In this document: one piece after another, positions 29,541-47,157 of the stretch
How positions within the stretch are numbered: position 1 is the first letter of the stretch
How the letters are laid out: every line of letters begins with the position of its first letter
NCBI GenBank assembly: GCA_948479395.1
Contig: CAOLUI010000002.1
Coordinates: 1,282-65,281, forward strand
DNA length: 64,000 bases
Direction: 5' to 3'
From: an uncultured Bacilli bacterium
GTDB lineage: Bacteria; Bacillota_I; Bacilli_A; RF39; UBA660
The notes under the pieces: generated by a model
The model's database searches: none
What the model was told of the DNA's origin: nothing
What the model saw: only the letters and a program-made list of their open reading frames with translations
Made by a program: the position numbers and the translations under genes

Positions 29541-29555
29541 ATTAGTACTTTTTAA
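29525..29555 (+). terminator. Rho-independent terminator of the PFOR gene
   Basis: Perfect 10-bp stem aagtactaat / attagtactt with a 6-nt loop, followed by ttttaaaa. Confidence 0.6.
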
Positions 29556-29776
29556 AATTCTACATTGAAGCTGCCCCCTGAAGACAGCTTCTAAAAGAAT
29601 AAAAAGGGGTTGACTAGTGTGATACTAGCACCAATTCGCATTAAGTGAATTGGTGATATATATACTAATTGATAAGGCTATTTTTGTCAACATTTTTTTA
29701 ACAAAAATAAAAATTTTTTTAAATATACATTTGTTTTTGTTTTTGCTATAATTTGTTTATAACGAGGAGTTAAGTA

Positions 29777-31797: not shown

Positions 31798-32415
31798 ATG
31801 AATAGATTAGATATTAAGAAAAAGGCAAAAGCTATTTTGAAAGAAAATTTTAAAGTGTTTTGGGAAGGATATTTAATTATTTTTGCATTATCTTTTGTAT
31901 TAAATTTAGGAATAGGATTAATTTTCGGTAGTTCCATGATTGGGACTGTTTTAAGTTTGGTTGCTTCATGTTTTTCAATGACTTTATCTGTTGGTTTTTA
32001 TTCTTATTTATTAAAAATGATTCGTAAGGAAAGTTTTTCACGAGAGGATATTTTTAAATTTATTAATAAAGTTTTGCCTATTATAGTAATTTCTTTATTA
32101 GTAGGGATATTTTGTTTTTTGTGGAGTATTTTGTTTATTATTCCTGGTATTATTGCAGCACTTAGTTACTCAATGGTATATTACATTTTTACAGAAAATT
32201 CTGAATTAACAGCTATGGATTATTTGGAAAAAAGTAAAAAAATGATGAATGGTTATAAGTTGGACTATTTTTTGTTTAATTTAAGTTTTATGGGGTGGAT
32301 GATTTTATCAATTTTAACTTTGGGTTTATTATTAATTTGGACTTTACCTTATTTTTCAATTTCACAAGCTTTATATTATGATGAGCTTAAGAAAAAAAAT
32401 GTTGATAACTTATAA
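31798..32415 (+). CDS. DUF975-family membrane protein
   Basis: 205 aa with 4 TM segments and the DUF975-like architecture. Confidence 0.5.
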   Translation: MNRLDIKKKAKAILKENFKVFWEGYLIIFALSFVLNLGIGLIFGSSMIGTVLSLVASCFSMTLSVGFYSYLLKMIRKESFSREDIFKFINKVLPIIVISLLVGIFCFLWSILFIIPGIIAALSYSMVYYIFTENSELTAMDYLEKSKKMMNGYKLDYFLFNLSFMGWMILSILTLGLLLIWTLPYFSISQALYYDELKKKNVDNL

Positions 32416-32475
32416 ATTTACAAAATCTGGAAGAATTTATTTGACAAAGTGCGTTTTTCATTATATCATTTTATT

Positions 32476-32590
32476 AGCATGATAGATATCATGCTAACCT
32501 TTCGAAACACTTTTACGATTTTATGTAAAAGTGAATCAACCAAAACCCCCTGAAGAGTAGAACGATTTAAAGTTCTGCTCATTTTTTTGG
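32476..32590 (+). ncRNA. Candidate small RNA (~115 nt) with a C-rich single-stranded motif; putative integration target of the island
   Basis: TTGACA(32441)-17 nt-TATCAT promoter; perfect 10-bp hairpin tagcatgata-GA-tatcatgcta (32475-32496); 9-bp hairpin cacttttac/gtaaaagtg (32508-32533); single-stranded ACCAAAACCCCCUGAAGAG; 9-bp terminator stem (32555-32580) plus U7. Its 3' portion recurs at the module junctions in the island. Confidence 0.45.
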
Positions 32591-32647
32591 CTTAAAATAA
32601 GGGCTTGTAAAAATTAACATTTAATAATTTTTCCTCTCAACTACCAA

Positions 32648-33793
32648 CTAACTACCAAAATCGACTATCGTAGGTTGAGGACAAGTTAGTTTATTTATAG
32701 TATTTACTGCATCACTAAGTTTATCTTTGAACATGTGAGTGTAGGTATCTAAGGTTTCTTCGATGGATGCATGACCTAAGAATTGAGATACAACTGCTAT
32801 ATTAGCATTGTTATTTATTAGTAAAGATGCACAACTGTGTCTAAAGTCATGTAATCTTATTCTTTTGATATTAGCATTTCTAGCAATTTCTATGTTCTTA
32901 TGCCTCATTTGATAGAAAGTTATAGGAATGAAATTTCCAAATATAAACCATTCATCATCAAACTCAGCAAATTGTTTCTGTTCTTCATATAATTGTTTTA
33001 AATCTCTAAAAAGAATTTCAGCAATAGGTAAAACCCTGTTGCTTTTTTGCGTTTTAGGTTTGGTTAATTCATAGTAGGTGGAATTTTCAGAGCCATGAGT
33101 TACTGCTTGTTTGGTAACTGATAATCTTTTATCACTCCAATTAACATCTTTCCATTGTAAGCCTCTAGCTTCACCTCTGCGAAGTCCGCAATAATATAAA
33201 GTTTCATACATACACTTAATTTGTAAGTTAGGTGCAGAAGATATAAATTGATTAAATTCTTCTAAAGTATAAAAGTCCATTTCTTTTTTTATATCTGATG
33301 CCGAAGTAAAAGGTTCCATTCTCCCATAAAACTTATTCATATTGAATCCATAGGTTTTAACAGCCCAATTAATGACTATCTTTAAAAACTTCTGAATTTC
33401 ATTTTTATAACTATTTGAAATGTCTACTTTCATCATTTCAGCTCTCCATTTTTGATAATGAATAGCATCCATATCTTTTAATTTAACTTTATCAAACATT
33501 CCAATATACTTAATTCTATCTCGATAAGTTTTTAAGGTAGAGTATCTTACAATATCTTTTTGAACCTCATAATATTTAGTGTATAACTCTTTGAAGGTCA
33601 TATTCATATCACCTTCAAAGACCTCAGACATTTTTAAATATTCTTTTTCAGCACGCTTGGCTTCTGCTTCCGTTTTGTATGCTTTAGAAAACTTTTTGCG
33701 TTTTTTGCCATCCAAACCGGTCTCCCAAACATACCAAATATATTTTCGACCATCTTTGGTCCATTTCTTTTCTTCTAATAGTCTAACTGCCAT
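32648..33793 (-). CDS. int: Tyrosine site-specific integrase (IME module 1)
   Basis: C-terminal catalytic box HDFRHSCASLLI...LGHASIEETLDTYTHMF (R..HxxR..Y), plus an N-terminal SAM-like domain. Confidence 0.9.
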   Translation of the reverse strand: MAVRLLEEKKWTKDGRKYIWYVWETGLDGKKRKKFSKAYKTEAEAKRAEKEYLKMSEVFEGDMNMTFKELYTKYYEVQKDIVRYSTLKTYRDRIKYIGMFDKVKLKDMDAIHYQKWRAEMMKVDISNSYKNEIQKFLKIVINWAVKTYGFNMNKFYGRMEPFTSASDIKKEMDFYTLEEFNQFISSAPNLQIKCMYETLYYCGLRRGEARGLQWKDVNWSDKRLSVTKQAVTHGSENSTYYELTKPKTQKSNRVLPIAEILFRDLKQLYEEQKQFAEFDDEWFIFGNFIPITFYQMRHKNIEIARNANIKRIRLHDFRHSCASLLINNNANIAVVSQFLGHASIEETLDTYTHMFKDKLSDAVNTINKLTCPQPTIVDFGS

Positions 33794-33888
33794 TATAATT
33801 CCTCCTTTGCTTAGTTTAGACTATTCACGCACTTCAATTGGTAGTTTACCATATTTAGTAGTGTTCTCCAATAGAAGTGCTGATAGTT

Positions 33889-35367
33889 CTATCTTTCTAT
33901 TTCAAAATCCTCTTTATTTTTATTGTTTTTACCATAATAACCATGATTAATAGCATCTGCTATAACTTCATAATCTTCTAATCTTTCTTTAGGCTTATCT
34001 CGTTTTAATACTTTGTCTATTGCCTTACACATTTTTTGGAATAGATTTTTCCACTTATTAACTTCGGTTTCTAATTTAGATTTTAAACTCTCAATATTAT
34101 TATTCAAAATATCTACTAATTCACTTAATTTACTAATTTCCTCTTTTTGCTCTTGGATAGTAGATTTTTGCTCTTTAATAATCTCGTTTCTTTTTAGGAG
34201 TTCTTTATTGTTTTTAAAAGTCTTATTTTCTTCAGTCAGTTTATTTATTTCTATATCTTTATTGGTATTATCAGTAGATAAGATAATTATCTTATGCTCT
34301 AAGCCTCTTGTGTACTTTATGAATCTAAGAACATCATCATCTTTATATCCACCAAATTTTCTTTTAACAGGATTTAAAATTTCTTTGTTACTATCATTAT
34401 TTTCGATATTTTTAAGCCCATTTTTAGAGTTTTCTATAATCTTTAAGGTATTTTCCTTTTCTTTGTTTAATTCTTCTAATTCGGCTTTTTTCTCTGCTAT
34501 ATCGTAATCTAATTTAGTTTGATTTTCTTTATTACTTCCAATATCTCCACGATAGAGATTAAATCCTTTTTCAGTAATAAACTTATTGAAGTCATTTTGC
34601 ATTTGATGAAAAGATATTTTGCCACCTCTATCTTTCCAAAATTGATCACAATTCAAGAAGTTACCTTTGACTTCTTCATATACAATTTTTCCTTTATCAT
34701 CACGAAGTAATTTTGGATTAATAGTAGTAATACCTTTTTTATTTGTTGTTTCTTCTTTTACAACATTACCATTAGCATCTTTTACAAAGCACTTCCTTTT
34801 AACTTTTCTAACAACAGGAACAAAATAGGCTTGTAGGTGAGGTGTATCTTCATCATAATGAATTTGAGCAAGAAGTATATTTTCTTCACCTACATAGTTC
34901 TTTAAAAACTCCATACAGGAATCAAAAAAGTAAGTTACAGCATTTGGTATATCTTCCTTTGATTTTATAACAGGAATCATTACAGCTTGTCCTTTTTTAT
35001 CTCCTGTATGATAAGTTCTACCACTATCTTTAAATTTCATTCCAAGTGCTTGAAAAAACTCAGGACCACTTGTGAATGTTACACCATTTAATAGATTAGT
35101 GTTAGGTCTATCTAGATATTCAATTTTTCTATCCTTTAACTTCTTTTTGACTTCTTGATATAAGTTGTTTTGAGTAAGAGATACATATTCATAATTAAAT
35201 TCTCTTCGTTCAATATCATAATTTCCTGTACCTTTTCTATCCTTCATTTCAACACCGATATTATAAAGGTCTGCTTTCTTATATTGGGTTACTACTCGTA
35301 CTACTTGTTTGCCATCATACAATTTTTTATCCTCCTTTGCTTCTGTGTCTTTAGTAGTAGAGGTCAT
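33889..35367 (-). CDS. mob: MobV-family (Mob_Pre / MobM-like) mobilization relaxase (module 1)
   Basis: HxDExxPHxH motif (HYDEDTPHLQAYF) and an N-terminal relaxase fold, with a long coiled-coil C-terminus. Confidence 0.8.
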   Translation of the reverse strand: MTSTTKDTEAKEDKKLYDGKQVVRVVTQYKKADLYNIGVEMKDRKGTGNYDIERREFNYEYVSLTQNNLYQEVKKKLKDRKIEYLDRPNTNLLNGVTFTSGPEFFQALGMKFKDSGRTYHTGDKKGQAVMIPVIKSKEDIPNAVTYFFDSCMEFLKNYVGEENILLAQIHYDEDTPHLQAYFVPVVRKVKRKCFVKDANGNVVKEETTNKKGITTINPKLLRDDKGKIVYEEVKGNFLNCDQFWKDRGGKISFHQMQNDFNKFITEKGFNLYRGDIGSNKENQTKLDYDIAEKKAELEELNKEKENTLKIIENSKNGLKNIENNDSNKEILNPVKRKFGGYKDDDVLRFIKYTRGLEHKIIILSTDNTNKDIEINKLTEENKTFKNNKELLKRNEIIKEQKSTIQEQKEEISKLSELVDILNNNIESLKSKLETEVNKWKNLFQKMCKAIDKVLKRDKPKERLEDYEVIADAINHGYYGKNNKNKEDFEIER

Positions 35368-35379
35368 TTATTGACCTAT

Positions 35380-35440
35380 CTCACTAGGGCATAGCCCAAT
35401 CGTCAGTTTAAGGGTTCACCCTTAAAAATCCCAAAATAAT
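35380..35440 (-). other. Candidate oriT of module 1
   Basis: Block tgacctatctcactagggcatagcccaatcgt, identical to the one upstream of the second mob gene. It contains the gggc-ata-gccc inverted repeat and is followed by the perfect palindrome ttaagggt-tc-acccttaa. Confidence 0.5.
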
Positions 35441-35502
35441 CACTATCGCCACTTTCATTGCTTTGCAACAAAACGTGCCTCGTTCTTATTTTTAGAAGAT
35501 GA

Positions 35503-36459
35503 TTATTCATCATCTTCGAGGTTAGGTTCTTCATATATACAATGATAAATTCTTTTATCACTTGTTCTGCTCTTAGTTATATAAAGTCCTTCTCTTTGTA
35601 ATAAATCCATATTTGCATTTATCATTCTTCCGAATCGTAATGCTGTTGTTTTTAATTTAGCATCATGAATTATACTAGTAGGAGTAAATTCAAAGTCTTT
35701 CTTTAACGATACATATTTGATAAAGAGTATTAAGTTCTCATCAAGTTCATCATCTTCAACAGGATTACTTATTTTAAAGGTTTGATTTTCGTTTCTTTTT
35801 AAATCCATATCAAATCCAGGAAAATCTCTATTAATTACTTTCATAATTAAATGATTATGGTCATTTCTAGTTTCAAACAAAGTTATTTTCCCATCTATAC
35901 AAGCATCAAAAGCTGTACTACCTAATGTTTCATTTCTTTTATTTAAGTGATGTGTAAATAATATTGTGAGATTATATTTCTCACATAATTCTCTTAACTT
36001 AGGTATTAACTTTTGTGCTACATCTTGAAAATCATTTATATCGTAAGAGATACCTAAATCCATATCTTTAAGCATATCAATGATTACTAATTTATTTGCT
36101 GTTTTATCACCTGAAAAATCATCAATCTCTTCTTCATGGTCAAGTATGCTTATATTAGGTTTTCCATCTCTATCTATAATGAATAAAGAATCCTTTTTTG
36201 GAGTTAGACCTAGTGTTTTATAGCGGTCCTGTAATTGACCAAAATCGGACTCTGTGCTAATATATAAGACAGGTGATGGAATTACTTTGTGTCCTAAAAA
36301 TGGTAATCCATTGGTAAGACAGTAGGAAAGTTGCAGTGCCAACATAGACTTTCCTACTTTAGGTTTTGATACAAGTAAATAAACACCTTTAGACCTCATT
36401 AATCCTTCGATTATGATGTCTTTTTTTGTGCTTGTATCTAATTCTTCAATTAGTTTCAT
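35503..36459 (-). CDS. AAA_25/RepA-like P-loop ATPase (putative replication or helicase-loader protein of the IME)
   Basis: Walker A SKPKVGKSM and Walker B LVIIDM; paralogous to 45794..46741. Confidence 0.6.
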   Translation of the reverse strand: MKLIEELDTSTKKDIIIEGLMRSKGVYLLVSKPKVGKSMLALQLSYCLTNGLPFLGHKVIPSPVLYISTESDFGQLQDRYKTLGLTPKKDSLFIIDRDGKPNISILDHEEEIDDFSGDKTANKLVIIDMLKDMDLGISYDINDFQDVAQKLIPKLRELCEKYNLTILFTHHLNKRNETLGSTAFDACIDGKITLFETRNDHNHLIMKVINRDFPGFDMDLKRNENQTFKISNPVEDDELDENLILFIKYVSLKKDFEFTPTSIIHDAKLKTTALRFGRMINANMDLLQREGLYITKSRTSDKRIYHCIYEEPNLEDDE

Positions 36460-36463
36460 ATCG

Positions 36464-36697
36464 TTATCCTTTCTTTATTCTAGATTCTAAATAACTAATA
36501 TTAATATCTAAATAATCTACAACTTCTTTCATAGGTACTACATGCTTTGGAACCATATAGCCTTGTTTGGTTAGTTTCTCTCTAATGTTTCTTTTAATCT
36601 TTAGAGCAGAGTTCCTACCAACTTGGCTAATCTTCATTAAATCTTCTAAACTACACCATTGTTTTGAAACGATTTCTAAAGTTTCCTCAGCAGTCAT
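36464..36697 (-). CDS. Small DNA-binding protein (excisionase/HTH-like)
   Basis: 77 aa and basic; it sits at the conserved position upstream of rep and is paralogous to 46754..46993. Confidence 0.4.
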   Translation of the reverse strand: MTAEETLEIVSKQWCSLEDLMKISQVGRNSALKIKRNIREKLTKQGYMVPKHVVPMKEVVDYLDINISYLESRIKKG

Positions 36698-36716
36698 TTT
36701 ATCCCTCCTTTCTATT

Positions 36717-36806
36717 TTGTAAGGTTAACCTTACAATTCTATTATGCAATAATTAAACTTTATTGTCAAGAAAAACTTACAAAATTGTTGTGAAAAACTT
36801 ACAGGA
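36717..36806. promoter_or_regulatory. Divergent control region of module 1: 20-bp perfect palindrome plus direct repeats
   Basis: Palindrome ttgtaaggtt/aaccttacaa at 36717-36736; direct repeats gaaaaacttaca at 36771 and 36795; extended -10 tgatataat before the XRE gene. Confidence 0.45.
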
Positions 36807-36863
36807 TATGATATAATGAATTTGGGATGATATTATACCCTAATAAACGAAGGAGTATTTTAT

Positions 36864-37388
36864 ATGGATAAAGAACTTACTTTAAAAGCTTTAATAGAAG
36901 GTGGAAGAGATGTAAAGAATTTTTCTCAAAGAGAACTAGCAAGAAGAATCGGTTTGAGTAATACATCTTTAAATGATCTTGAAAATGGAAAAGTTAAAAA
37001 GCCTGATATAGAGGTATTAAGAAAGATTGCTGAAGAACTTGATTTATCTTTAGAACAATTATTAAAAGCAGCAGGATATGATGCTTTAACAAATTGGTTT
37101 TCTAATGATGAATTTAAAAATAAATCTTCTAGAGATTTAAAAAATATTATTAAAGAAGCAAGAATTTTTAAATATGATATTTTGGATTGGGATAGCAATA
37201 AAAGAGAAGTAGCTAGACATGTAATGGAAAACTTAGATAGAGTAGCATACAAATTAGAACTAATAAGAGATAATAAAGGAATAAATTATACATTAGATCA
37301 AGCAATAGAAGATATTAAAGAATCGTTAAAAGATTTAGAAGATGTTGCTAAAAAATATGATTATAGCAAATTGCCTAAAGATGTGTAG
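36864..37388 (+). CDS. XRE-family HTH transcriptional regulator (module 1)
   Basis: HTH motif QRELARRIGLSNTSLNDLENGK. Confidence 0.75.
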   Translation: MDKELTLKALIEGGRDVKNFSQRELARRIGLSNTSLNDLENGKVKKPDIEVLRKIAEELDLSLEQLLKAAGYDALTNWFSNDEFKNKSSRDLKNIIKEARIFKYDILDWDSNKREVARHVMENLDRVAYKLELIRDNKGINYTLDQAIEDIKESLKDLEDVAKKYDYSKLPKDV

Positions 37389-37406
37389 AGAGTAGGAGGA
37401 AAACTA

Positions 37407-38096
37407 ATGAAAAACAAACCGATTATTGGAATTGTTTCAAAGCATTATGCAAAATATAAAGATAGTAGAACGGATACATTTGTAGGAGATGAATTAAAGC
37501 AAGCGGTTTTTGATAATGGTGGTGTAGCCATTGGAATTTTACCGACTGAGGATAAGATTAAATACAGTGGAGATCATTGGCATGATGATTTATCTAAAGT
37601 TGAAAAAGAAAACTTAATTTCTCAAATTAAACTATGTGATGGAATAATTTTACAAGGTGGAATTGAAACTGATAATTATGAAAGTATTGTTTCGAAATAT
37701 TGTTATGATAATGACATTCCCATATTAGGAATATGTGCAGGACAAAATAATATTGTTAGAGCATTAGGGGGAACGACATGTAAAATACCTAATCCTGAAA
37801 AGCACAATAAATCATTTTATGACTATGCTCATAACATAACAATTAATAAAGATTCGAAGTTTTTTTCTATAGTTAACACAGAGAGTATGCCTGTTAATTC
37901 CATACATCAACGAACAATTAATGAGTGTCCTTTATTAGAAAAAGTAGGATTTTGTGAAAACGGTTATCCAGATGTTGTTGAATCTAAAGATAAAAAATTT
38001 TATATAGGAGTTAGATTTCATCCAGAAAGTCTTTACAAGAAGAATGAATACCATAATAGAATATTTGAATATTTTATTAATTGCTGTAAGAAATAG
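37407..38096 (+). CDS. Class I glutamine amidotransferase-like / gamma-glutamyl hydrolase (peptidase C26) family protein
   Basis: LGICAGQ catalytic Cys motif and a downstream His (RFHPE). Confidence 0.65.
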   Translation: MKNKPIIGIVSKHYAKYKDSRTDTFVGDELKQAVFDNGGVAIGILPTEDKIKYSGDHWHDDLSKVEKENLISQIKLCDGIILQGGIETDNYESIVSKYCYDNDIPILGICAGQNNIVRALGGTTCKIPNPEKHNKSFYDYAHNITINKDSKFFSIVNTESMPVNSIHQRTINECPLLEKVGFCENGYPDVVESKDKKFYIGVRFHPESLYKKNEYHNRIFEYFINCCKK

Positions 38097-38105
38097 GAGG
38101 ATTGT

Positions 38106-38669
38106 ATGGAAGTTTTAAAAGCAATAGAAGAAAGAAGAAGTATTAGAGCATTTAAGAGTGATGAACCACCCAAAGAAATTATTGAAGATATACTTAATTG
38201 TGGGAGATTAGCACCATCTGCTAAAAATAGGCAACCTTGGTATTTTGTGATAGCAAGGAATGAGATTAAGGACAAGATAGCTGATTTAATGATTAATTAT
38301 ACACTTAATCATGATGATACTATTGAAAGAGCAAAAATAGGCTGTCCTAGTAGTGTTAATCCAACTGCCAATGTAATTAAACAAGCACCTATATTAGTTG
38401 TAGTATTAAGAGAAAAAAATGATAATTGGACAGTTGGAGATAATTTATCAATAGGTGCTTGTGTTGAAAATATTTGTTTAAGAGCAACAGATTTAGGTTT
38501 AGGAAGTTTATGGATAAGAGATACCGTTTATGTAGCTCAGGAAATAGCAGATCTTGTAAAACATGGTGATATGGAATTAAATTGTGCAGTAGCTTTAGGA
38601 TATGCTAATCAATCCCCAAAACAACGACCAAGAAAAAATTTAAATGAAATACTAGAATGGATTGGATAG
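38106..38669 (+). CDS. Nitroreductase family protein
   Basis: N-terminal RRSIRAF, PSAKNRQPW and a C-terminal dimerization region. Confidence 0.75.
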   Translation: MEVLKAIEERRSIRAFKSDEPPKEIIEDILNCGRLAPSAKNRQPWYFVIARNEIKDKIADLMINYTLNHDDTIERAKIGCPSSVNPTANVIKQAPILVVVLREKNDNWTVGDNLSIGACVENICLRATDLGLGSLWIRDTVYVAQEIADLVKHGDMELNCAVALGYANQSPKQRPRKNLNEILEWIG

Positions 38670-38675
38670 ATAAGT

Positions 38676-39173
38676 ATGAAGGTAGAATTAGCAAAAATAG
38701 AAGATTTAGATGCTATACATAAATTAATATATGATAGATGTTTATGGTTTTCAAAAAAAGGTGTAAAAGGTTGGAATATTAATTTTTATCCTAAAAAATA
38801 TAATCAAGATTATTTTAAAGAACAAATGAAAGTTAATCAATTATTCGTAGCAAAATCAAATAATAAAGTATGTGGCGTTATGCTATTAAAAGAAGAAGAT
38901 AAAGATTTTTGGAATGATAATAAACCTTGTTATTATATTCATCATTTAGCAACAGATATTAATCTAAAAGGTATAGGAAAATTATTATTAAACTATGCGA
39001 TAGAACAATGTAAAAAAGATAATAAAGAATGTTTGAGATTAGATTGTTATAAAACCAGTCAATTTCTTAATGATTATTATGAAAAAGTAGGCTTTAATAA
39101 TGTTGGAAGTGGAAACCTTGATGATTATAACTACAATTTATGGGAGATGAAAGTAATAAACAATGAAAAATAA
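38676..39173 (+). CDS. GNAT family N-acetyltransferase
   Basis: Acetyl-CoA motif region HHLATDINLKGIGKLLLNYAI. Confidence 0.6.
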   Translation: MKVELAKIEDLDAIHKLIYDRCLWFSKKGVKGWNINFYPKKYNQDYFKEQMKVNQLFVAKSNNKVCGVMLLKEEDKDFWNDNKPCYYIHHLATDINLKGIGKLLLNYAIEQCKKDNKECLRLDCYKTSQFLNDYYEKVGFNNVGSGNLDDYNYNLWEMKVINNEK

Positions 39174-39591
39174 TGTTATATATAAGGGCTATAAAATAAG
39201 GGTTAGATGTTTAGATTGGGAGCAAATAAATACTTTAGATAAATATTGGAAAACATTTACGAATTTTATTGAATCTGAAAAAATTATTGGGCTAGGTATG
39301 AATTGGACTGATGATTATTTATATTTTGACTATGCTATAGGTGTTATAAATGATGATGATACTTTTAATAAAATTCAAAATATTGATTTTTCTAGCACAG
39401 ATTTTAATGTTGAATATATTGAATTAAATTTATCTAATTTAAATGAATGGGAGACATTTAAAGGTAAGGATAGTGAAATTAAAGAAATATATGAAAATCA
39501 AATAGATTGCTATAATAGAAGTTATGATTATGAATTAGAGTACATTGATAGTAAAGGAAATATAGAAATCAAAATTCATTTTTTAAATTGA
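39163..39591 (+). CDS. Hypothetical protein
   Basis: 142-aa ORF overlapping the upstream stop codon; no recognizable motif. Confidence 0.35.
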   Translation: MKNNVIYKGYKIRVRCLDWEQINTLDKYWKTFTNFIESEKIIGLGMNWTDDYLYFDYAIGVINDDDTFNKIQNIDFSSTDFNVEYIELNLSNLNEWETFKGKDSEIKEIYENQIDCYNRSYDYELEYIDSKGNIEIKIHFLN

Positions 39592-39811
39592 TGTATATAA
39601 TAAAAACTAAACTAAAATGACAAGATGACAGTAGTTTGAGAGGCCCTCATTACTATTGTCATCTTGTCATAAAAAAGATAACTGAAAAAAAGTAGATAAA
39701 GCATTTAAAAATATAGTCAATACCGTTAATGAAGATATTGAAAAAGGGAAATATGTAATAAAAATAGATGATAATGATAGTATAATAAATAAATTAGAGT
39801 ATGGAGAAGAA

Positions 39812-40159
39812 ATGAAAAAAGAGAAATTAGTTAGTGAATTTAATAAGATAAATGCTGGTAGCAATTTAAATGAGATTCAAAAATATATTACTAAAATGAT
39901 GGATGTAAATAGCTTTAACAATACACCTTTAGAATTGTTTTGTTACTTAACTGAAGAAGTTGGAGAATTAGCAAAAGAAATTAGAAAAACAGAAAAAAAT
40001 ATGGATATGGATATAAAAAAAGAATATGAATCTTGTTTAAAACATGAAATAGCAGATGTATTTATATATTTATTGGCAATATGTAATTCATATAATATAG
40101 ATCTTTTAGAAGCTTTTAAAGATAAAGAAAAGATTAATTTGGATAGAGTTTGGAAGTAA
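39812..40159 (+). CDS. MazG-like nucleotide pyrophosphohydrolase
   Basis: EEVGELAKEI...EIADVFIYLLAI is a typical MazG EExxE/D helix pair. Confidence 0.65.
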   Translation: MKKEKLVSEFNKINAGSNLNEIQKYITKMMDVNSFNNTPLELFCYLTEEVGELAKEIRKTEKNMDMDIKKEYESCLKHEIADVFIYLLAICNSYNIDLLEAFKDKEKINLDRVWK

Positions 40160-40890
40160 AAAAGAGAGTTGATAGAATGACTAAAAGCAAAACTTTTTCA
40201 GATAGTGTTCTAGAATTTAATGAATGGTTGGCTAATATATCTTTAGATTTATTTGATAATTATAGCATTAGTAACCCATTTAATGGTAAAAACAAAGAAC
40301 AAATAAAAATGATAACAAATGCATTTTATAAGAAATATTATAATGACAATAATAAAAGATATTTAATACTAGGTAGTTCACCAGCAAGAAAAGGCACAGC
40401 TACAACAGGTATTCCATTTGAAGATGCAAGTCATCTTTATAAAGAAACTGGTATTATGATTGATGACTTTTATATAAATAAATCATCTTCGGATTTTTTG
40501 TATGATGTTATGGCACAATATGGCGGTTGCGAAAAGTTTTATAAGAATTTTTTTATGAGTTTTGTATGTCCATTAGGGATAGTAAATATAAACTCAAAAG
40601 GAAATGAAGTTAATTCAAATTATTATGAAAATAAAAAATTAGAGAATTTTCTCTACAATTTTATTGTTGATTCTTTAAAAAAACAGATTTCTTTTGGAAT
40701 TGATACATCAATATGTTATTGCATAGGAAGTGGAGAAAATTTTAAATTCTTAACAAAAATTAACAATCAATATAAATTATTTGATAAGATTATTGCTTTA
40801 GAACATCCAAGATTTATTATGCAATATAATTCAAAGGATAGGAATAAATATTTGAATAAATACATTAATGCTTTTAATAATAGGAAATAA
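40150..40890 (+). CDS. Uracil-DNA glycosylase superfamily-like protein (family unclear)
   Basis: LILGSSPARKGTATTGIPF resembles UDG motif A (G-x-x-P-G) and LEHPRF resembles motif B (HPS). The assignment is weak. Confidence 0.3.
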   Translation: MEVKKRVDRMTKSKTFSDSVLEFNEWLANISLDLFDNYSISNPFNGKNKEQIKMITNAFYKKYYNDNNKRYLILGSSPARKGTATTGIPFEDASHLYKETGIMIDDFYINKSSSDFLYDVMAQYGGCEKFYKNFFMSFVCPLGIVNINSKGNEVNSNYYENKKLENFLYNFIVDSLKKQISFGIDTSICYCIGSGENFKFLTKINNQYKLFDKIIALEHPRFIMQYNSKDRNKYLNKYINAFNNRK

Positions 40891-41126
40891 AGTAATAAAA
40901 ATTCTTCATAAACAATTGAAATAGGTAAAAATTTATCAAAAAGAATTAAAAATAAAAAAGGAGTAGAATATTTGAGAATAGATATACTCATAATGTTTCT
41001 AACTACCTTTTCAACTACCAAAATTTTAAAATTCATATAATACTTGTTAAATTTAAGTATTTTAAATCCTATTAAAATAAAGGTAAAAGTATTTAAATAA
41101 ACTTTGAAGTGCGTGAACTCTAACCG

Positions 41127-41158
41127 CCCCCTGAAGGAGCGCATAGCGCTCCATTTTT
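41127..41158 (+). repeat. Partial copy of the sRNA 3' end / att-like motif (CCCCCTGAAG plus GC hairpin plus T-run)
   Basis: aagtgcgtgaactctaaccgCCCCCTGAAGgagcgcatagcgctccattttt aligns with 32528-32590. Confidence 0.5.
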
Positions 41159-41272
41159 GTTTATTTATAAGGATTTGCTCATTTCAAAAAATGCTTTAGG
41201 TAATAATTAGGTAATATTTTTTAAAAATTATATATAAAATTTCTATAAACACTTAAAAAAATTGCCAAAATA

Positions 41273-41281
41273 TGGTATAAT
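41273..41281 (+). promoter_or_regulatory. Extended -10 promoter (TGgTATAAT) driving the retron-like ncRNA
   Basis: tggtataat lies immediately upstream of the structured region. Confidence 0.45.
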
Positions 41282-41287
41282 TTATTT

Positions 41288-41545
41288 GTACTTAGAAGCA
41301 GATAATAGCTTTATTTTGTACAATCAATACGGTGTAAGTCCGTGGAACTCTTTTTATGGGAGTATTAGCATTGCTATACGCAATAGCTAGGTAATGATAT
41401 GGAGTCCTTGTGGTTCGCTTGCAGACAAGCTGCAGCTCACCTACAAGTACTAGCCATACATGACGTAATTTGCCAAGTATATGGAGATTAATTAAGAATT
41501 CAGGTCGCTGCTTGCCCCTTTGTATTAATATATTGTATTTTTGTA
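41288..41545 (+). ncRNA. Candidate retron msr-msd-like (or DRT-type) structured ncRNA
   Basis: About 260 nt of non-coding sequence between a promoter and an RBS. It has local GC enrichment and several stem-loops: gctat-acgca-atagc, gcttg-caga-caagc, the gctgcagc palindrome, and an outer cttgtgg / cctacaag stem. It lies directly upstream of a reverse transcriptase. Confidence 0.5.
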
Positions 41546-41559
41546 AAGGAGGTAGGTCT

Positions 41560-41757
41560 ATGAAGAAAAAAGATAAACAAAAAGTTACGATTATTTTCGT
41601 AGTATTAGCATTTAGCTTTTTATTTGTAGTGAAGGTTTTGAATTTAAATTTATCTGAAACATTGTTAAGTTTAAGTTTTATAGGACTTTTAAAAGTCGCT
41701 TTAGAAAATTTTCCTAATGGGGAAGCCCTTCTAACGAAGCTGAGTATTATCACTTAA
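41560..41757 (+). CDS. Small transmembrane protein (~65 aa), candidate retron accessory/effector protein
   Basis: ATG preceded by the strong RBS aaggagg; MKKKDKQK followed by hydrophobic helices. The track ORF 41470..41757 probably over-extends upstream into the ncRNA. Confidence 0.45.
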   Translation: MKKKDKQKVTIIFVVLAFSFLFVVKVLNLNLSETLLSLSFIGLLKVALENFPNGEALLTKLSIIT

Positions 41758-41805
41758 TTAATTGCTGATATATGCTTGGCGTTTTTACGTTTTGGAGATG
41801 ATATT

Positions 41806-42972
41806 ATGAAAACAAAGATAAAAAATACAGAATCAATTTTATATAACAGAGGTAATAAAAAACTTGTGGCTGATTTATTGTCAGATAAGAAAAATAATAT
41901 AATTTTTACTAAAAACGATTTAAATAATATTATATATAAGTATGACAAAAAAGGAATTGTATTTTTTGAAAATAAAAAAACAAAAAGAAGATATAAGAAA
42001 ATGCCAAAAGATTATTCTCCAAAAAAGTATAGAAAATTTACTGATGTATTAGAACCACGTAAAACAGCATTAAAAAGATTAAATAAATATTTGTCCGAAC
42101 TAAAAATACCAAACTATGTTTTTGCAAAAACAGATGGTGGATATGTAAAAAATGCAAGATTTCATAAAGGAAATGTTAATTTTTTATTGATTGATATAGC
42201 TAGCTTTTATCCAAATTGTAAATTTAAAGATGTAAAATGCTTTTTTATGTCTGGTGGAGGATTTAGAATGAAAAATGATTTGGCACAAAGAATGGCTGAA
42301 TTAGTAACAGTACCAGAAAAATCAAATCCTAAAGTTAGGGTTATACCACAAGGATTCTCGACTAGTACATTAATAAGTTTTTTTGCTTATAAAAAAATGT
42401 TTGCAGAATTAAACAAACTAGCATTAGATAATAATTTAGCTTTTAGTACATATGTTGATGATGTAACATTTTCTACAAATGATAAAAATTTTGATTTTAA
42501 TAATATATTAGATAAAATAGATGCAATTTTAAAAACGTATGGTCACCAAAGAAAGGTAGAAAAAACTCAAATATGTTTATTGGATAATGGTAAATGTCCT
42601 ACCATAACTGGAATATGGATTAAAAGACATAAGGTAAGAGCTTCATCAAAAATGTATAAAAAATTAATATATAATTATAGATGGTTAACTTCAAATCCTA
42701 TCATAAATTCTGAGAGTTATTTAAGTTCTTGGAAGCATTTTGTTTCTTTAAACGGATTGTTAAATACTATTGATTATATCGAACCTATAACTCGTCAAAA
42801 AAGGGATTATATTAGAAAATATGTTGATGAGCACAAAAAACATTATTTACTAAATTTATCACCATATACAAAAAAATATAATAGTAATTATTGGAGAGGC
42901 AAGTTTTACAGTGCTTATTTAAGTGATAATTTAGAAGAATTTTATTTGGCAAATAAAGATAAATTAAAATAA
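41806..42972 (+). CDS. Retron-type / defence-associated reverse transcriptase
   Basis: RT motifs FLLIDIASFYPN (motif A-like), IPQGFSTSTLIS (motif B'), STYVDDVTFS (YxDD catalytic) and a retron-like VTG-type motif (PTITGIWIK). 389 aa with no maturase or endonuclease domains. The ATG at 41806 has a ggaga RBS; the track start at 41776 is a TTG. Confidence 0.75.
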   Translation: MKTKIKNTESILYNRGNKKLVADLLSDKKNNIIFTKNDLNNIIYKYDKKGIVFFENKKTKRRYKKMPKDYSPKKYRKFTDVLEPRKTALKRLNKYLSELKIPNYVFAKTDGGYVKNARFHKGNVNFLLIDIASFYPNCKFKDVKCFFMSGGGFRMKNDLAQRMAELVTVPEKSNPKVRVIPQGFSTSTLISFFAYKKMFAELNKLALDNNLAFSTYVDDVTFSTNDKNFDFNNILDKIDAILKTYGHQRKVEKTQICLLDNGKCPTITGIWIKRHKVRASSKMYKKLIYNYRWLTSNPIINSESYLSSWKHFVSLNGLLNTIDYIEPITRQKRDYIRKYVDEHKKHYLLNLSPYTKKYNSNYWRGKFYSAYLSDNLEEFYLANKDKLK

Positions 42973-42976
42973 AAAA

Positions 42977-43008
42977 AGTGGTAAGCTCCTTTGAACTTAC
43001 CATTTTTA
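42977..43008 (+). terminator. Rho-independent terminator after the RT gene
   Basis: tggtaagctcctttgaacttacca stem-loop followed by ttttta. Confidence 0.55.
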
Positions 43009-43013
43009 TGTGC

Positions 43014-44069
43014 TTAAATATCTATTTCTAAATCTTCATCTATAATGTCATTTTCTATAAGATTTTCTTCTTTTATGCGTTTAGCATTTTGGTTAATTAA
43101 CTTTACAATATCTTCTAATTTATTTTGATACATATGAGAATAAGTATTTAGTGTTTCATCTATTTTAGTGTGTCCTAGATATTTTGCTACTAAAGTAATA
43201 CTAGCACCATAATTAATTAAGAATGAAGCACAAGAATGTCTAAAATCATGTACTCTAATTTGTTTAACTCCTGCTTCTTTACAATTAGCATTTTTTCTTC
43301 TTCTAATTGTATCTTTATGAATAGGAAGATCATTTCCAAAAACATACCACTCTTGACTAAAATTTTGATATTGTTTTTGACTATTATATAACTTTTCTAA
43401 ATCTTCTAATAGAATATCATTGATAGGTAAATCTCTGTTGCTATTTTTAGTTTTTAAAGGACTCAATCTATAATTATCAATACTATAAATAGATGGAATT
43501 TGTTTATAAATTTTCATCATTTTATTATTAAAATCAATGTCTTTCCATTGTAGTCCACGAAGTTCACCTTTACGAAGCCCCATATAATATAATGTTTCAA
43601 ATAAAGGTCTAAATAATATATCATTTTCTACTGATATAAATTTATTAAACTCTTCGATAGTAAAAAATTCCATTTCTTTCTTTAATTCGTTTGGATTAGT
43701 AAAATTAGTCATTTTGTTGTACATGGGAGCAAAGTTAAAATCATACCATCTTGTACCAAAATTTAATATTGCTTTTACAAATTTAAATAAATCATTTTTA
43801 TAAGAAGTGGCAAGAGGTAATTTATTAATTTCCTTTTTCCACAATTCAAAATGTTTAATATTCATTTCTCGTAATTTAATTTTATCAAATAATTCTAAAT
43901 ATTTAATTCTATCTCTATAAGTTTTTATAGTGCTTTCTCTAACCTTATCACTTTGGTATTCATAAAATGTTAAATATAAATCTTTAAAAGTCATATCTCT
44001 ATGATTAATTGTTTGATCTAGTGATAACAAAAATTGTCTTTCTGCTTCTTGAGCTTCTTTTTTAGTCAT
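43014..44069 (-). CDS. int: Tyrosine site-specific integrase (IME module 2)
   Basis: VHDFRHSCASFLI...LGHTKIDETLNTYSHMY; paralog of 32648..33793. Confidence 0.9.
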   Translation of the reverse strand: MTKKEAQEAERQFLLSLDQTINHRDMTFKDLYLTFYEYQSDKVRESTIKTYRDRIKYLELFDKIKLREMNIKHFELWKKEINKLPLATSYKNDLFKFVKAILNFGTRWYDFNFAPMYNKMTNFTNPNELKKEMEFFTIEEFNKFISVENDILFRPLFETLYYMGLRKGELRGLQWKDIDFNNKMMKIYKQIPSIYSIDNYRLSPLKTKNSNRDLPINDILLEDLEKLYNSQKQYQNFSQEWYVFGNDLPIHKDTIRRRKNANCKEAGVKQIRVHDFRHSCASFLINYGASITLVAKYLGHTKIDETLNTYSHMYQNKLEDIVKLINQNAKRIKEENLIENDIIDEDLEIDI

Positions 44070-44204
44070 ATATTTTTTAGAACGATATAATTTATTTACA
44101 CCATCTAAACCTTTGTAATAAGTAGAAAAGTACCATTTTCTACCATCCTTAGTTTGTTCTTTTGCTTTTGCTTGAAAAATTGCTATAAAACATCACCCTT
44201 TCTT

Positions 44205-45647
44205 TTATATTTCAATTTCATAATCACCTTTGTCTTTTATTTCGTTTTTATCATAATCATAATAATCGTTATTTATTGCATCTACTATATCTTCATAATC
44301 CTCTAATTTTTCTTTGGGTTTATCTCGTTTTAATAATTTATCTATTGCCTTACACATTTTTTTGAATAGACTTTTCCACTTATTAACTTCAGTTTCTAGT
44401 TTAGATTTTAGACTTTCAATATTGTTATTTAATATATCTACCAATTCACTTAATTTATTAATTTCTTCTTTTTGATCTTGAATAGTAGATTTTTGTTCTT
44501 TAATAATTTCATTCCTTTTTAGGAGTTCCTTATTGTTTTTAAAAGTCTTATTTTCTTCAGTCAGTTTATTTATTTCAATATCTTTATTAGCATTATCTGT
44601 AGATAAGATTATTATTTTATGCTCTAAGCCACGAGTATATTTTATGATTCTAAAAACATCTTCTTCTTTATAGCCACCAAATTTCCTTTTAACAGGATTT
44701 AAAAGTTCTTTATTACTATTATTATTTTCAATGTTTTTAAGACCATTTTTAGAGTTTTCTATAATCTTTAAGGTATTTTCCCTTTCTTTATTTAATTCTT
44801 CTAATTCAGCTTTTTTCTCGGCTATATCATAGTCTAATTTAGTTTGGTTTTCTTTATTAGCTCCTATATCACCACGATAAAGATTAAATCCTTTTTCCGT
44901 AATAAACTTATTGAAGTCATTTTGCATTTGGTGAAAAGATAGCTTACCACCCTTATCTTTCCAAAATTGATCGTTATTTAAAAAGTTACCTTCAATTTCA
45001 TCATAGATGATTTTTCCTTTGTCATCACGAAGTAATTTAGAAACTATAGAAGTAGTACCATCTTTCTTTTTTACTTCTTCTTTGATAATATTTTCATTTT
45101 TATCTTTTACAAAACATTTCCTTTTAACTTTATTAACAACAGGAATAAAATAGGCTTGCAAGTGTGGAGTATCTTCATCATAATGAACCTGAGCGAAAAG
45201 TATATTTTCTTCACCTACATAATTCTTTAAAAACTCTATACAACAGTCAAAAAAGTAGGTAACAGCATTTGGTATATCTTCTTTTGATTCTATAATGGGA
45301 ATCATTACTGCTTGTCCTTTTTTATCTCCTGTATGATAAGTTCTGCCACTATCTTTAAATTTCATTCCAAGTGATTGGAAAAACTCAGGTCCACTTGTAA
45401 ATATTACACCGTTTAATAGATTAGTATTAGGTCTATCTAGATATTCAATTTTTCTTTTCTTTAAAGTCGTTTTTACTTCTTGATATAAATTTGGTTGTTG
45501 AAGTGAAACATATTCGTAGTTATATATTGTTCTTTCAATATCGTAATTACCTGTACCTTTTCTTTTATTCATTTCAACTCCAATATTATAAAGATCATCT
45601 TTCTTATATTGAGTTTCTACTCGTACTACTTGTTTGCCATCATACAA
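44205..45647 (-). CDS. mob: MobV-family relaxase (module 2)
   Basis: HYDEDTPHLQAYF motif; very similar to 33889..35367 along its whole length. Confidence 0.8.
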   Translation of the reverse strand: MYDGKQVVRVETQYKKDDLYNIGVEMNKRKGTGNYDIERTIYNYEYVSLQQPNLYQEVKTTLKKRKIEYLDRPNTNLLNGVIFTSGPEFFQSLGMKFKDSGRTYHTGDKKGQAVMIPIIESKEDIPNAVTYFFDCCIEFLKNYVGEENILFAQVHYDEDTPHLQAYFIPVVNKVKRKCFVKDKNENIIKEEVKKKDGTTSIVSKLLRDDKGKIIYDEIEGNFLNNDQFWKDKGGKLSFHQMQNDFNKFITEKGFNLYRGDIGANKENQTKLDYDIAEKKAELEELNKERENTLKIIENSKNGLKNIENNNSNKELLNPVKRKFGGYKEEDVFRIIKYTRGLEHKIIILSTDNANKDIEINKLTEENKTFKNNKELLKRNEIIKEQKSTIQDQKEEINKLSELVDILNNNIESLKSKLETEVNKWKSLFKKMCKAIDKLLKRDKPKEKLEDYEDIVDAINNDYYDYDKNEIKDKGDYEIEI

Positions 45648-45679
45648 TTTTTATCCTCCTTTGCTTATGTTTCTTTAGT

Positions 45680-45745
45680 AGTAGAGGTCATTTATGACCT
45701 ATCTCACTAGGGCATAGCCCAATCGTGAGTTTAGGGACACGTCCC
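45680..45745 (-). other. Candidate oriT of module 2
   Basis: Same 32-bp block as module 1 (tgacctatctcactagggcatagcccaatcgt), followed by the palindrome tagggac-ac-gtcccta. Confidence 0.5.
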
Positions 45746-45793
45746 TAAAAACCCTGAATATTTTTTGTTCGCAAAAAATATATAATATAAATA

Positions 45794-46741
45794 TTAATAA
45801 TTAATCATAGGTTCTTCATATCTTGCAATATAAACTCTTTCATTAGATGTTCTTTTCTTTGTGATATGCAAACCTTCTTTTTCTAAAGTAATTAAATTAT
45901 TATTTAGTAGCTTACCAAATACTGATGGTTGTATCATTAAACCTAATGTACTGGTAATTTCAGATATAGTAAAAGAGAATTCTTTTTTCTTAATAGCATA
46001 ATTCAAAAATATTTTTAACTCGTTACTTAATTCTTCAATTTCCTCATTAACTACTTCAAATATTAAATTCTCTTTTCTTTTTAAAATAAAATCTCGACTT
46101 TCATAATCTCGACTTTGATAATTAAAATAAATTTTATCTTTTAAATTATTATCTAATTTTAAAGTGATAATTCCATCTACAGCACCATCAATAGCAGTAC
46201 TACCTAATGTAGTATTTGTTTTATTTAGATGATGAAGTAACAATACAGTAATTCCATACTTAGAGCATAATTTTCTATATTTAGGTAATACTATTTGTGC
46301 CATATCTTGGTAATTATATAAGTCAAATTTATCATTTATATAAACTCCATTAAACATATCAATTATTACAAACTTACCTTGATTGATATTAGCAAATTCA
46401 CTAATCTTTTCTTCTAAATCATCTAGGTTTAATTTCTTTTTATCTGATTCTTGTTCTATTAAAAAGAAATTGCTATTAAACTCTAAACTCATTTTCTTAA
46501 TACGATCAGCAATTTGCGAAGAATCCATTTCTGTGCTAATATATAAGACAGGTGATGGATTTACTTTAAATCCTAAAAATATTGTTCCTGTTGCAATAGC
46601 ATGAGCAAGTTGTAGAGCTAATAATGACTTGCCCACTTTAGGACGAGCAACTAAACAATATAAGCCATTAGATTTCATAAGACTATCAACTATGAAATCT
46701 TTTTTTGTGCAATTATTTAGTATTTCATTAATTGTTTTCAA
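45794..46741 (-). CDS. AAA_25/RepA-like P-loop ATPase (module 2)
   Basis: ARPKVGKSLLALQL Walker A and IIDMF Walker B; paralog of 35503..36459. Confidence 0.6.
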   Translation of the reverse strand: MKTINEILNNCTKKDFIVDSLMKSNGLYCLVARPKVGKSLLALQLAHAIATGTIFLGFKVNPSPVLYISTEMDSSQIADRIKKMSLEFNSNFFLIEQESDKKKLNLDDLEEKISEFANINQGKFVIIDMFNGVYINDKFDLYNYQDMAQIVLPKYRKLCSKYGITVLLLHHLNKTNTTLGSTAIDGAVDGIITLKLDNNLKDKIYFNYQSRDYESRDFILKRKENLIFEVVNEEIEELSNELKIFLNYAIKKKEFSFTISEITSTLGLMIQPSVFGKLLNNNLITLEKEGLHITKKRTSNERVYIARYEEPMINY

Positions 46742-46753
46742 ATTTTCTCCTTT

Positions 46754-46993
46754 CTAATTAATTCCTTCTTTTGACATCTTTTGAAGATAATTAATATTAA
46801 TTTTTAAATAATTCACAACTTCATTCATTGGCAACAATTTACTAGGTAATTGATAACCTTTGTTTAACAAATTAATTCTAATTTCACTTTTCAATTTAGA
46901 AGCACTATTTTTGCCTAAACCTGTAAGTTTTCTTAAGTCATTTAAGTCACACCATTGTTTAGAAATCAAATATAATGTTTCTTTTGCGGTCAT
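46754..46993 (-). CDS. Small DNA-binding protein (excisionase/HTH-like, module 2)
   Basis: 79 aa; paralog of 36464..36697 (MTA.ETL...SKQWC.L.DL). Confidence 0.4.
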   Translation of the reverse strand: MTAKETLYLISKQWCDLNDLRKLTGLGKNSASKLKSEIRINLLNKGYQLPSKLLPMNEVVNYLKININYLQKMSKEGIN

Positions 46994-47021
46994 TTATTCA
47001 CCTCACTTTCTATAACTAAAT

Positions 47022-47140
47022 GAGGTTCAAAAACCACTTATTTTTGAACCTCTCTATAATAATTATTACATATTTCTACTATATTAGTCAATATATAATC
47101 GTACAAAAAGTTCAAAAATAATAAAATTTATTGTTTTTAG
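47022..47140. promoter_or_regulatory. Divergent control region of module 2: 12-bp inverted repeat plus reiterated GTTCAAAA boxes
   Basis: gaggttcaaaaa-ccactta-tttttgaacctc at 47022-47052; additional gttcaaaa boxes near 47103 and 47128. Confidence 0.4.
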
Positions 47141-47157
47141 GTTCAAAATAGTATATA

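Follow-up and report, generated by a model that had tools for sequence, protein, structure and literature searches.

An uncultured Bacilli bacterium (assembly GCA_948479395.1, contig CAOLUI010000002.1) carries, between the gene of a DUF975 protein and a tyrosine integrase gene, a short intergenic region at which a mobile element appears to begin. What does this region encode, and what does the element recognise in it? We analysed a 64,000-nucleotide (nt) stretch of the contig, called the window below, with positions counted from its first letter; its G+C content is 24%. A preliminary description of this DNA had proposed an independent small RNA (sRNA) gene that is also a target of integration. 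We name the gene E1 and place it at 32441–32590 of the plus strand, with a predicted transcript of ~115 nt, an assignment that is well supported. The best explanation of our results, to which we give a probability of about 75%, is that E1 is an independent sRNA gene whose 3' part doubles as the attachment site (attB) of integrative mobilizable elements (IMEs), that these elements swap its terminator upon integration, and that the RNA would act by base pairing.

The predicted promoter of E1 lies at 32441–32469, downstream of the DUF975 gene (31798–32415; Pfam 1.6e-34), and consists of a −35 box TTGACA (32441–32446), a 17-nt spacer and a −10 box TATCAT (32464–32469), in agreement with the consensus at 11 of 12 positions. 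It is followed on the same strand by hairpin 1 (32474–32497, UUAGCAUGAU-AGAU-AUCAUGCUAA) with a perfect 10-bp stem, by hairpin 2 (32508–32533, CACUUUUAC-GAUUUUAU-GUAAAAGUG) with a perfect 9-bp stem, and by a single-stranded motif, AAUCAACCAAAACCCCCUGAAG, at 32534–32555, which includes an invariant 18-nt stretch, UCAACCAAAACCCCCUGA, at 32537–32554. A predicted intrinsic terminator at 32555–32588 (a 9-bp stem at 32555–32580 and a T-run) closes the unit; it is supplied by the adjoining element, island 1, and is the only terminator-like site within 32300–32700, where shuffled sequences give an expectation of 0.1. The integrase open reading frame (ORF) of island 1 (32648–33793, minus strand) ends 59 bp beyond the T-run, close to the ~55 bp of the preliminary description, which had also named the promoter, the two perfect hairpins, the single-stranded stretch and the terminator as we find them. 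In one respect that picture has to be corrected. It spoke of a C-rich loop, but the single C5 run of E1 (32546–32550) sits inside the linear single-stranded stretch, and the hairpin loops are A/U-rich. Over 120 nt, the E1 RNA is predicted to fold at −37.8 kcal/mol, with z = −7.7 relative to shuffled sequences.

A scan of one genome per species with the 19-mer TCAACCAAAACCCCCTGAA located E1 in uncultured low-GC gut Bacilli, in at least 120 species-level genomes; E1 is also present on 67 metagenome contigs. The listed carriers are mostly labelled uncultured Bacilli, Tenericutes/Mollicutes, Mycoplasma sp. or Erysipelotrichaceae, with few labelled as other groups, and we suspect that the lineage is of the RF39 type. 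Several carrier contigs are binned as Muribaculaceae, Gammaproteobacteria or Rickettsiales; these are probably short contigs that were placed in the wrong bin.

Homologues of the DUF975 protein (49–77% identical) provided a synteny anchor that is independent of E1. When the orthologous intergenic regions are aligned, every locus whose sequence extends to E1 has it. In these loci, both promoter hexamers are kept, the spacer sequence varies and the terminators differ, and the hairpins are altered through compensatory substitutions with the single-stranded stretch unchanged. Among 151 unique homologues, the −35 box is TTGACA or TTGACT in 112, the spacer measures 17 nt in 134, and the −10 box agrees at five or more of its six positions in 123. 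A hairpin of −7 kcal/mol or better, then a T-run, follows E1 in all of the 143 unique downstream sequences. Since the 19-mer had served to find the loci, its invariance was possibly circular, and we therefore scanned metagenome contigs using nothing but hairpin 2 and TCAACC as the pattern. All 67 matches run on as AAAACCCCCTGA; a further A follows in 66 of the 67. At the next position, 53 have G, 11 have A and 2 have T, beyond which the sequences are unrelated. By this comparison, the conservation of E1 ends exactly where the DNA assigned to the elements themselves starts. It is well supported that E1 is inherited vertically in a large lineage of these uncultured low-GC gut Bacilli.

The predicted structure is conserved in the same way. 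A covariance model of E1 was built from 108 sequences, with covariation scored on 101, and it finds a single copy per locus. Standard pairs occupy 93.3% of the alignment cells, versus 28–52% when the 3' partners are slid by one to three columns. Compensatory double changes occur at 17 of 17 pairs (shuffle mean, 13.4), and the cells with a compensatory change number 261 (shuffle mean, 61). Specifically, such changes affect 8 of 8 modelled pairs in hairpin 1, with 92.6% of cells paired, and 9 of 9 pairs in hairpin 2, with 93.9% paired, and the frequent U.G pairs in these hairpins are compatible with the plus strand only. These figures come from an alignment fitted to the model, and such a fit favours the structure; when the sequences were aligned with plain MAFFT and folded with RNAalifold, the identical two helices emerged, with compensatory changes at all predicted pairs.

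These data bear directly on two readings in which E1 is no RNA gene of its own. In the first, the block is a DNA attachment site combined with the 3' untranslated region or terminator of recG or of the DUF975 gene. The block does follow one of these genes directly in many species, often recG, and mobile elements clearly recognise it as DNA. However, the stretch from the upstream stop codon to hairpin 1 contains a conserved TTGACA-17-TATAAT promoter, covariation in the hairpins passes through G.U intermediates valid on one strand only, and the unit also stands behind unrelated genes, with recG upstream in just 36 of 64 loci. In addition, the integrase requires a core of only ~10 bp, whereas ~95 nucleotides are conserved, and we regard this reading as very improbable. 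In the second, the region encodes a micro-protein, which in the window would have 24 amino acids (MIDIMLTFRNTFTILCKSESTKTP) and end at the TGA inside CCCCCTGA. An ATG-initiated frame of this kind is present in the window and in close relatives, but an ATG-initiated ORF that ends at the motif TGA is absent from 106 of 149 unique sequences, the peptides are unrelated except for their last five residues where ORFs do occur, a ribosome-binding site is missing, and the substitutions are those that keep the stems paired. We rejected this candidate as hardly credible. The independent sRNA gene of the preliminary description is upheld by a promoter, covarying hairpins, an invariant motif and a terminator that are conserved in at least 120 species.

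That E1 belongs to no described RNA family is well supported by searches with covariance models. At gathering thresholds, Rfam 15 has no match in the 64-kb window or in 18 whole loci of other species. A permissive search of 32300–32750 (E up to 10) gave sbrA as its best match, at 20.7 bits versus 45 (E = 0.076), and a permissive search (E up to 1) of 20 short homologous loci gave nothing that overlaps E1. ARAGORN finds neither a tRNA nor a tmRNA in the window, and Rfam likewise finds none. The E1 motif was not found in viral contigs, nor the E1 locus in plasmid or phage records. Text searches of the literature with the motif sequences found no paper, and neither Rfam nor a limited literature search yielded sRNAs from this lineage.

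The preliminary description had likened E1 to RsaE/RoxS. These and other Firmicutes sRNAs with a C-rich seed are ~100 nt long and combine hairpins, an exposed C-run and a terminator, all of which E1 shares. If E1 were a divergent RsaE/RoxS, it would repress translation through the G-rich Shine-Dalgarno sequences of metabolic mRNAs; members of that family pair with such regions in central-metabolism mRNAs and have a redox-responsive promoter. The similar size, the hairpins with an unpaired C-run and the Bacilli host fit that family, and a more RsaE-like string, CCCCUUUUU, is present in the window, but in a second RNA (E2, described below) and not in E1. Against this stands the RsaE model itself (RF01820), which is absent among the matches at E up to 10 in 32300–32750 and at E up to 1 in the 20 homologues; no other model matches the locus either, and nothing consistent emerges across the 38 homologues. 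RsaE/RoxS RNAs carry two or more unpaired C-rich motifs (UCCC/CCCC), whereas E1 has a single C5 run, set in a 19-nt invariant context, and none of the AGGGGG sites in the window is at a ribosome-binding site. By the covariance models, E1 has no detectable homology to RsaE/RoxS in sequence or structure, and we consider this origin improbable.

The second part of our question concerns the attachment site. Exact copies of the core 10-mer CCCCCTGAAG are present at 32546, 41127 and 51773, and a copy with one mismatch is present at 53278; with a fifth match at 29574, inside E2, the window holds five core matches versus 0.41 expected by chance. The first copy is the left attachment site (attL) of island 1, with its core at 32546–32558 (CCCCCTGAAGAGT; the minimal core common to all elements is CCCCCTGAA(G)). 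The second (41127–41158, core 41127–41136) is where island 1 meets island 2 and carries the terminator GGAGCGC-AUA-GCGCUCC with a T-run, the third (51773–51810, core 51773–51785) carries the terminator GAGUCAGC-GAAA-GCUGGCUC, and the fourth (53278–53315), which marks the distal boundary of the array, has a degenerate CCACCTGAAGAG with a weakened hairpin and a T-run; all four lie on the plus strand. The hairpins that follow the four copies differ in sequence, that at 53278 being degenerate, and beyond the core only the copies at 51773 and 53278 are alike (72% over 58 nt). A 43-nt pattern of C-run plus terminator, with up to three mismatches allowed, matches the window once, at 32546. The preliminary description had reported that the 3' ~45–60 nt of the unit recur at 41127, 51773 and 53278, and had explained this by integrase-mediated duplication of the target 3' end. 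The recurrence stands for a core of 10–13 nt and falls away for any longer repeat. Since each core copy has its own terminator, supplied by the element, the E1 3' end is not duplicated, and the copies have only the 10–13-nt crossover core in common.

The exact DUF975 protein is found on further assemblies of the same species, and four of them (L003, L005, L006 and L007) lack exactly 19,227 bp, which correspond to islands 1 and 2. These empty-site assemblies follow the window without a difference as far as 32558 and resume, equally without one, at 51773; the matching stretches share an overlap of 13 bp, CCCCCTGAAGAGT, and the identical flanks extend over 2.8–5.7 kb on the left and 0.8–5.2 kb on the right. 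In the strains without the two islands, E1 is terminated by the hairpin at 51783. The claim that E1 is an integration target is thereby borne out by a precise insertion at the core. The right ends of the islands resemble E1 from CCCCC onward only, so the crossover would fall inside CCCCCTGAA(G); among the metagenome matches, the sequences diverge immediately beyond CCCCCTGAA. Altogether, we find an occupied and an empty allele, a precise insertion, direct core repeats, an integrase gene adjoining the junction and a recurrence of this arrangement in independent genomes. It is well supported by this comparison of alleles and genomes that the last invariant bases of E1, CCCCCTGAA(G), form the attB core of an IME family.

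The gene content of the islands, namely an integrase and a relaxase with a putative origin of transfer (oriT) and without mating machinery, identifies them as IMEs. In island 1 (32559–41126, 8.6 kb), the tyrosine integrase (32648–33793; Pfam Phage_integrase 6.2e-26) is followed by a MobV relaxase (Mob_Pre, 33889–35367), an AAA_25 ATPase (35503–36459) and a 77-amino-acid ORF (36464–36697), all on the minus strand, and by a helix-turn-helix (HTH) regulator on the plus strand (36864–37388). Island 2 (41137–51772, 10.6 kb) is related to it and repeats this backbone at 70–96% nucleotide identity, with the integrase at 43014–44069, MobV at 44205–45647 and AAA_25 at 45794–46741 on the minus strand and the HTH gene at 47158–47706 on the plus strand. 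By Pfam, the integrase and Mob_Pre exceed their cut-offs; the match to the NCBIfam MobV model, at 84.5 bits, falls short of its cut-off of 100. Both MobV genes have, directly upstream, a block of 60 nt that contains two short inverted repeats (35372–35431 in island 1, 45695–45754 in island 2), is 85% identical between the islands and is a plausible and likely oriT. Neither island has conjugation-pore genes (type IV secretion or coupling protein), the other ORFs being regulators or cargo. The island integrases are at most ~31% identical to any integrase from phage records. A decayed third element of 1.5 kb (51786–53277) retains a fragment that is 87% identical to the HTH gene of island 1.

From these observations, the following mechanism is well supported. 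Strand exchange would take place inside the core CCCCCTGAA(G), and each element has its own hairpin and T-run right after its copy of the core. Since the element-borne terminator follows the core, integration would swap the terminator only and leave the E1 body, its motif and its termination intact. Successive integrations would have produced the array in the window, with two tandem elements and a decayed third. The excised circle of island 1 would show the junction GAACTCTAACCG-CCCCCTGAAG-AGTAGAACGATTT.

The same site appears to be in use in other species. We examined the 69 species loci in which 1.5 kb or more of sequence is available downstream of E1. Integrases homologous to those of the window are encoded there on the opposite strand, no more than 300 nt away in 14 loci and no more than 4 kb away in 21; the corresponding counts for metagenome E1 loci are 4 and 9 of 38. 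Furthermore, 26 of the 120 listed genome contigs stop within 150 nt past the attachment core, as is expected if assemblies break at variable insertions. About 18 more copies of core plus terminator lie 1–6 kb downstream of E1 in other loci, and we take these, from their position and sequence, to be the right attachment sites (attR) of elements or their remnants. Terminator arms are shared behind the E1 of different species, GGAGCGCAATAGCGCTCC and TTTATTTATAAGGGTT in six of them, and a terminator near-identical to that of the 41127 copy follows E1 in at least six other species. In one case (L214), an integrase identical to that of island 1 and an identical terminator arm stand at the E1 of another species, which has a glycosyltransferase gene upstream of E1 and an E1 that differs at several positions. 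The identity of integrase and arm at the E1 of a different species shows that the element has moved between species and reached the same landing site.

The elements also share a short motif of their own. Of 144 unique downstream sequences, 48 have TA[TA]AAGG after the terminator, versus ~2 expected; the motif lies +30 to +45 nt past the attachment core (L026–L212), is common to elements with unrelated terminators, and is probably a protein-binding site on the element side, for which it is our candidate. Two observations concern the DNA carried next to E1: a DUF3800-I RNA (Rfam RF02969, 54.8 bits) lies ~2.3 kb from E1 in one locus (L116, 1585–1707), and a DUF3800 protein gene lies downstream of E1 in another (L011). 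Cargo of the defence type seems to gather at the E1 site.

This system can be compared with known ones. The genes for tRNA and tmRNA (ssrA) are attachment sites of integrase-bearing islands and prophages. As in those targets, a tyrosine integrase, whose gene adjoins the junction and is oriented towards it, would recombine within a highly conserved structured RNA gene, in its 3' part. A surrogate 3' end on the element keeps E1 intact, and reuse of the site leads to tandem arrays and decayed remnants. Unlike those targets, E1 is a predicted sRNA gene, negative with ARAGORN and Rfam, and the common core has only ~10 nt; E1 regains just a terminator of element-variable sequence, so that the "repeat" is functional and not one of sequence. 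Among the IMEs of the Firmicutes are streptococcal ones that target conserved genes at their 3' ends. The islands resemble Firmicutes IMEs in their small size (8.6 and 10.6 kb), in the combination of a tyrosine integrase with a MobV/Mob_Pre relaxase and a putative oriT, in having no mating-pore genes, in their variable cargo that includes defence genes, and in having a conserved gene whose 3' end is the specific site of insertion. They differ in their hosts, which are uncultured low-GC gut Bacilli. To our knowledge, E1 has not been reported before as an integration target. It would follow that a core of ~10 nt is enough for elements to target an RNA gene, and any functional terminator to repair it. 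Since the core is this short and the terminators are free to vary, repeat-based finders that expect long direct repeats would miss such elements.

What, then, would the E1 RNA do? Its 5' hairpins, exposed invariant stretch and terminator make up the usual layout of a pairing sRNA, from which we infer that E1 most likely acts by base pairing through the exposed C-rich stretch. A duplex scan of the 64 kb for E1 targets returned only the antisense of E1 itself, the attachment copies and one further site, at 29574, through which E2 was located. The best candidate for a partner would thus be the G-rich terminator loop of E2, UCAGGGGG; G-rich ribosome-binding sites elsewhere in the genome are possible targets as well.

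E2 is a second uncatalogued, predicted sRNA gene and a candidate partner of E1. It lies at 29555–29690 on the minus strand, upstream of recG, with a predicted RNA of about 100 nt (~29655–29555). Its consensus promoter (29690–29662) has TTGACA at 29690–29685, a 17-nt spacer and TAGTAT at 29667–29662. The predicted RNA has a first hairpin, ACCAAUUC...GAAUUGGU, an invariant second hairpin, GCUAGU-AUCAC-ACUAGY, a single-stranded stretch, UCAACCCCUUUUUAUUCUUUUA, with an invariant, RsaE-like CAACCCCUUUUUAUUCUUU, and a terminator whose loop (29584–29574, UCUUCAGGGGG) is complementary to the E1 motif. E2 occurs in 38 distinct sequences, always adjoining recG. Its terminator stem covaries between species and is followed in most by a T-run, and a G-C to G.U change in the second hairpin, seen in 10 of the 38 sequences, is valid on the minus strand only. 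E2 has no Rfam match at gathering scores, and its covariance model finds no divergent extra copies.

Other identities for E2 fared poorly. The terminator region, read on the plus strand, weakly matches the DUF2815 motif (RF03084; 21.1 bits, E = 0.092, gathering 41.2); like that motif, it has a hairpin with a GCCCC...UGAAG loop and then UAAAAAGG. The match lies on the strand opposite to the promoter, the T-run and the G.U evidence of E2, and we treat the resemblance as chance or convergent. A plus-strand structure with a GUUGRC/GUCAAC helix was rejected, as GTCAAC is the −35 box of the minus-strand promoter and as the T-run and the G.U pair of the second hairpin on the minus strand contradict it too. 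We also rejected a micro-protein, since the ATG of the 16-codon frame in the window species is missing in most others, and a second attachment site in the E2 loop, since no integrase or island adjoins it in any locus.

The fit between the two RNAs is close. The E2 loop has CAGGGGG in 35 of 38 sequences, and in the window the loop is the exact complement of CCCCCUGAAGA in E1. Elsewhere, CAGGGGG occurs only ~5–6 times in 2.5 Mb of both-strand sequence, with E1 antisense, attachment copies and E2 loops excluded. The CA ahead of the G-run is conserved as well; it fits CCCCCUG of E1 and not E2's own C-run, CCCCUU. The duplex of E1 motif and E2 reaches −17.3 kcal/mol (median of 38 species) versus −8.9 for shuffled motifs, of which 0.13% reach the energy of the E1–E2 duplex. 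These values raise the tentative possibility that E1 and E2 are a dedicated sRNA pair flanking recG, in which CCCCCUGA(AGA) would dock on the E2 loop UCAGGGGG. If this is true, the contact would be a loop-to-strand interaction of 8–11 bp by which one RNA titrates or destabilises the other, the pair would govern how far two C-rich seeds are available (CCCCC in E1 and CAACCCCUUUUU in E2), and the mobile elements would dock at a stretch that is held invariant by the E1–E2 interaction. RosA is a sponge of RoxS, and the pairing proposed here, of a G-rich site in another sRNA with the C-run of E1, would parallel it.

A different role has to be weighed here, namely that E1 is a protein-binding or housekeeping RNA, a sponge or scaffold whose single-stranded CCCCCUGA is recognised by a protein. 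The near-consensus promoter, which shows no obvious conserved regulator site and has a variable spacer, agrees with this role, as do the 19-nt invariance, which exceeds the length of a typical seed, and the lack of an mRNA target in the window. On the other hand, no protein presents itself as a partner, E1 is built in the way usual for pairing sRNAs, and the E2 loop is complementary, not identical, to the motif on the transcribed strand. We judge a protein-binding role rather unlikely.

Several findings nevertheless weigh against an sRNA that works by base pairing. Its near-consensus and apparently constitutive promoter and its 19-nt invariance would, as just noted, also suit a protein-binding or housekeeping RNA. 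GGGG is found in the ribosome-binding region of 0 of 65 window ORFs (at least 100 amino acids), a sample in which 64 kb is too little to judge. The E2 covariance model places E2 beside recG in only about one-quarter of the sources searched, and E2 is present in 30 of 74 loci with sufficient upstream sequence; since E2 is found in only part of the carriers, contact with E2 would not be the whole function of E1, unless E2 lies elsewhere. Part of the E2 G-run of the window species is possibly paired in an extended stem, and standard co-folding of E1 and E2 gives no gain in energy, by a method that is blind to loop-to-strand contacts. Finally, the transcription, ends and abundance of E1 are read from sequence signals, and all listed carriers are metagenome-assembled or uncultured-isolate records.

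Taking the evidence on both sides, we retain the pairing sRNA with a terminator-swapping attB as the best explanation of E1. By its conservation and structure, E1 represents a new RNA family, one of a familiar kind, and it occurs widely in its lineage. It adds a well-supported family, and the nearby E2 would add another, to a major group of uncultured bacteria of the human and animal gut, and the complementary E2 motif offers a concrete, testable RNA–RNA interaction. In addition, the invariant 19-mer is a practical anchor for the left junctions of islands in at least 120 species and permits a systematic harvest of their cargo, here including a retron-type reverse transcriptase (RT), a zeta-toxin-like kinase and a phosphotransferase.

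The remaining content of the islands is mostly cargo. Island 1 carries GATase, nitroreductase, acetyltransferase, MazG and UDG genes. In island 2, an RT matching the PADLOC type VI retron RT model (41776–42972, plus strand; 1.1e-48) is placed between the attachment copy and the integrase. The 600 nt upstream of it, which could hold the non-coding RNA of a retron, contain only doubtful ORFs, including a membrane-like one of 65 amino acids at 41560–41757, and give no Rfam match. The rest of island 2 is metabolic and toxin-like cargo. Within it (48319–49158, 49124–50112 and 50117–51235), the zeta-toxin-like kinase adjoins no recognised epsilon antitoxin, a 2-hydroxyacid dehydrogenase is split over two ORFs and is probably a pseudogene, and the phosphotransferase is a kinase of the APH family.

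Short repeats occur just inside the island ends. The direct repeat CAACTACCAACTAACTACCAAAA lies at 32637–32665, TTTAGGTAATAATTAGGTAAT is found at both ends of island 2 (41195–41245 and 51636–51686), and analogous doublets occur in elements of other species, such as TTTAGGTGGCATTTAGGTGGCA in L017. These repeats look like arm-type integrase binding sites, for which they are candidates. Just past the last attachment copy, at 53425–54701, a 101-amino-acid ORF stands next to the gene of a 318-amino-acid protein with a SocA/Panacea antitoxin domain (annotation of L003), and the two may form a toxin–antitoxin pair at the edge of the hot spot.

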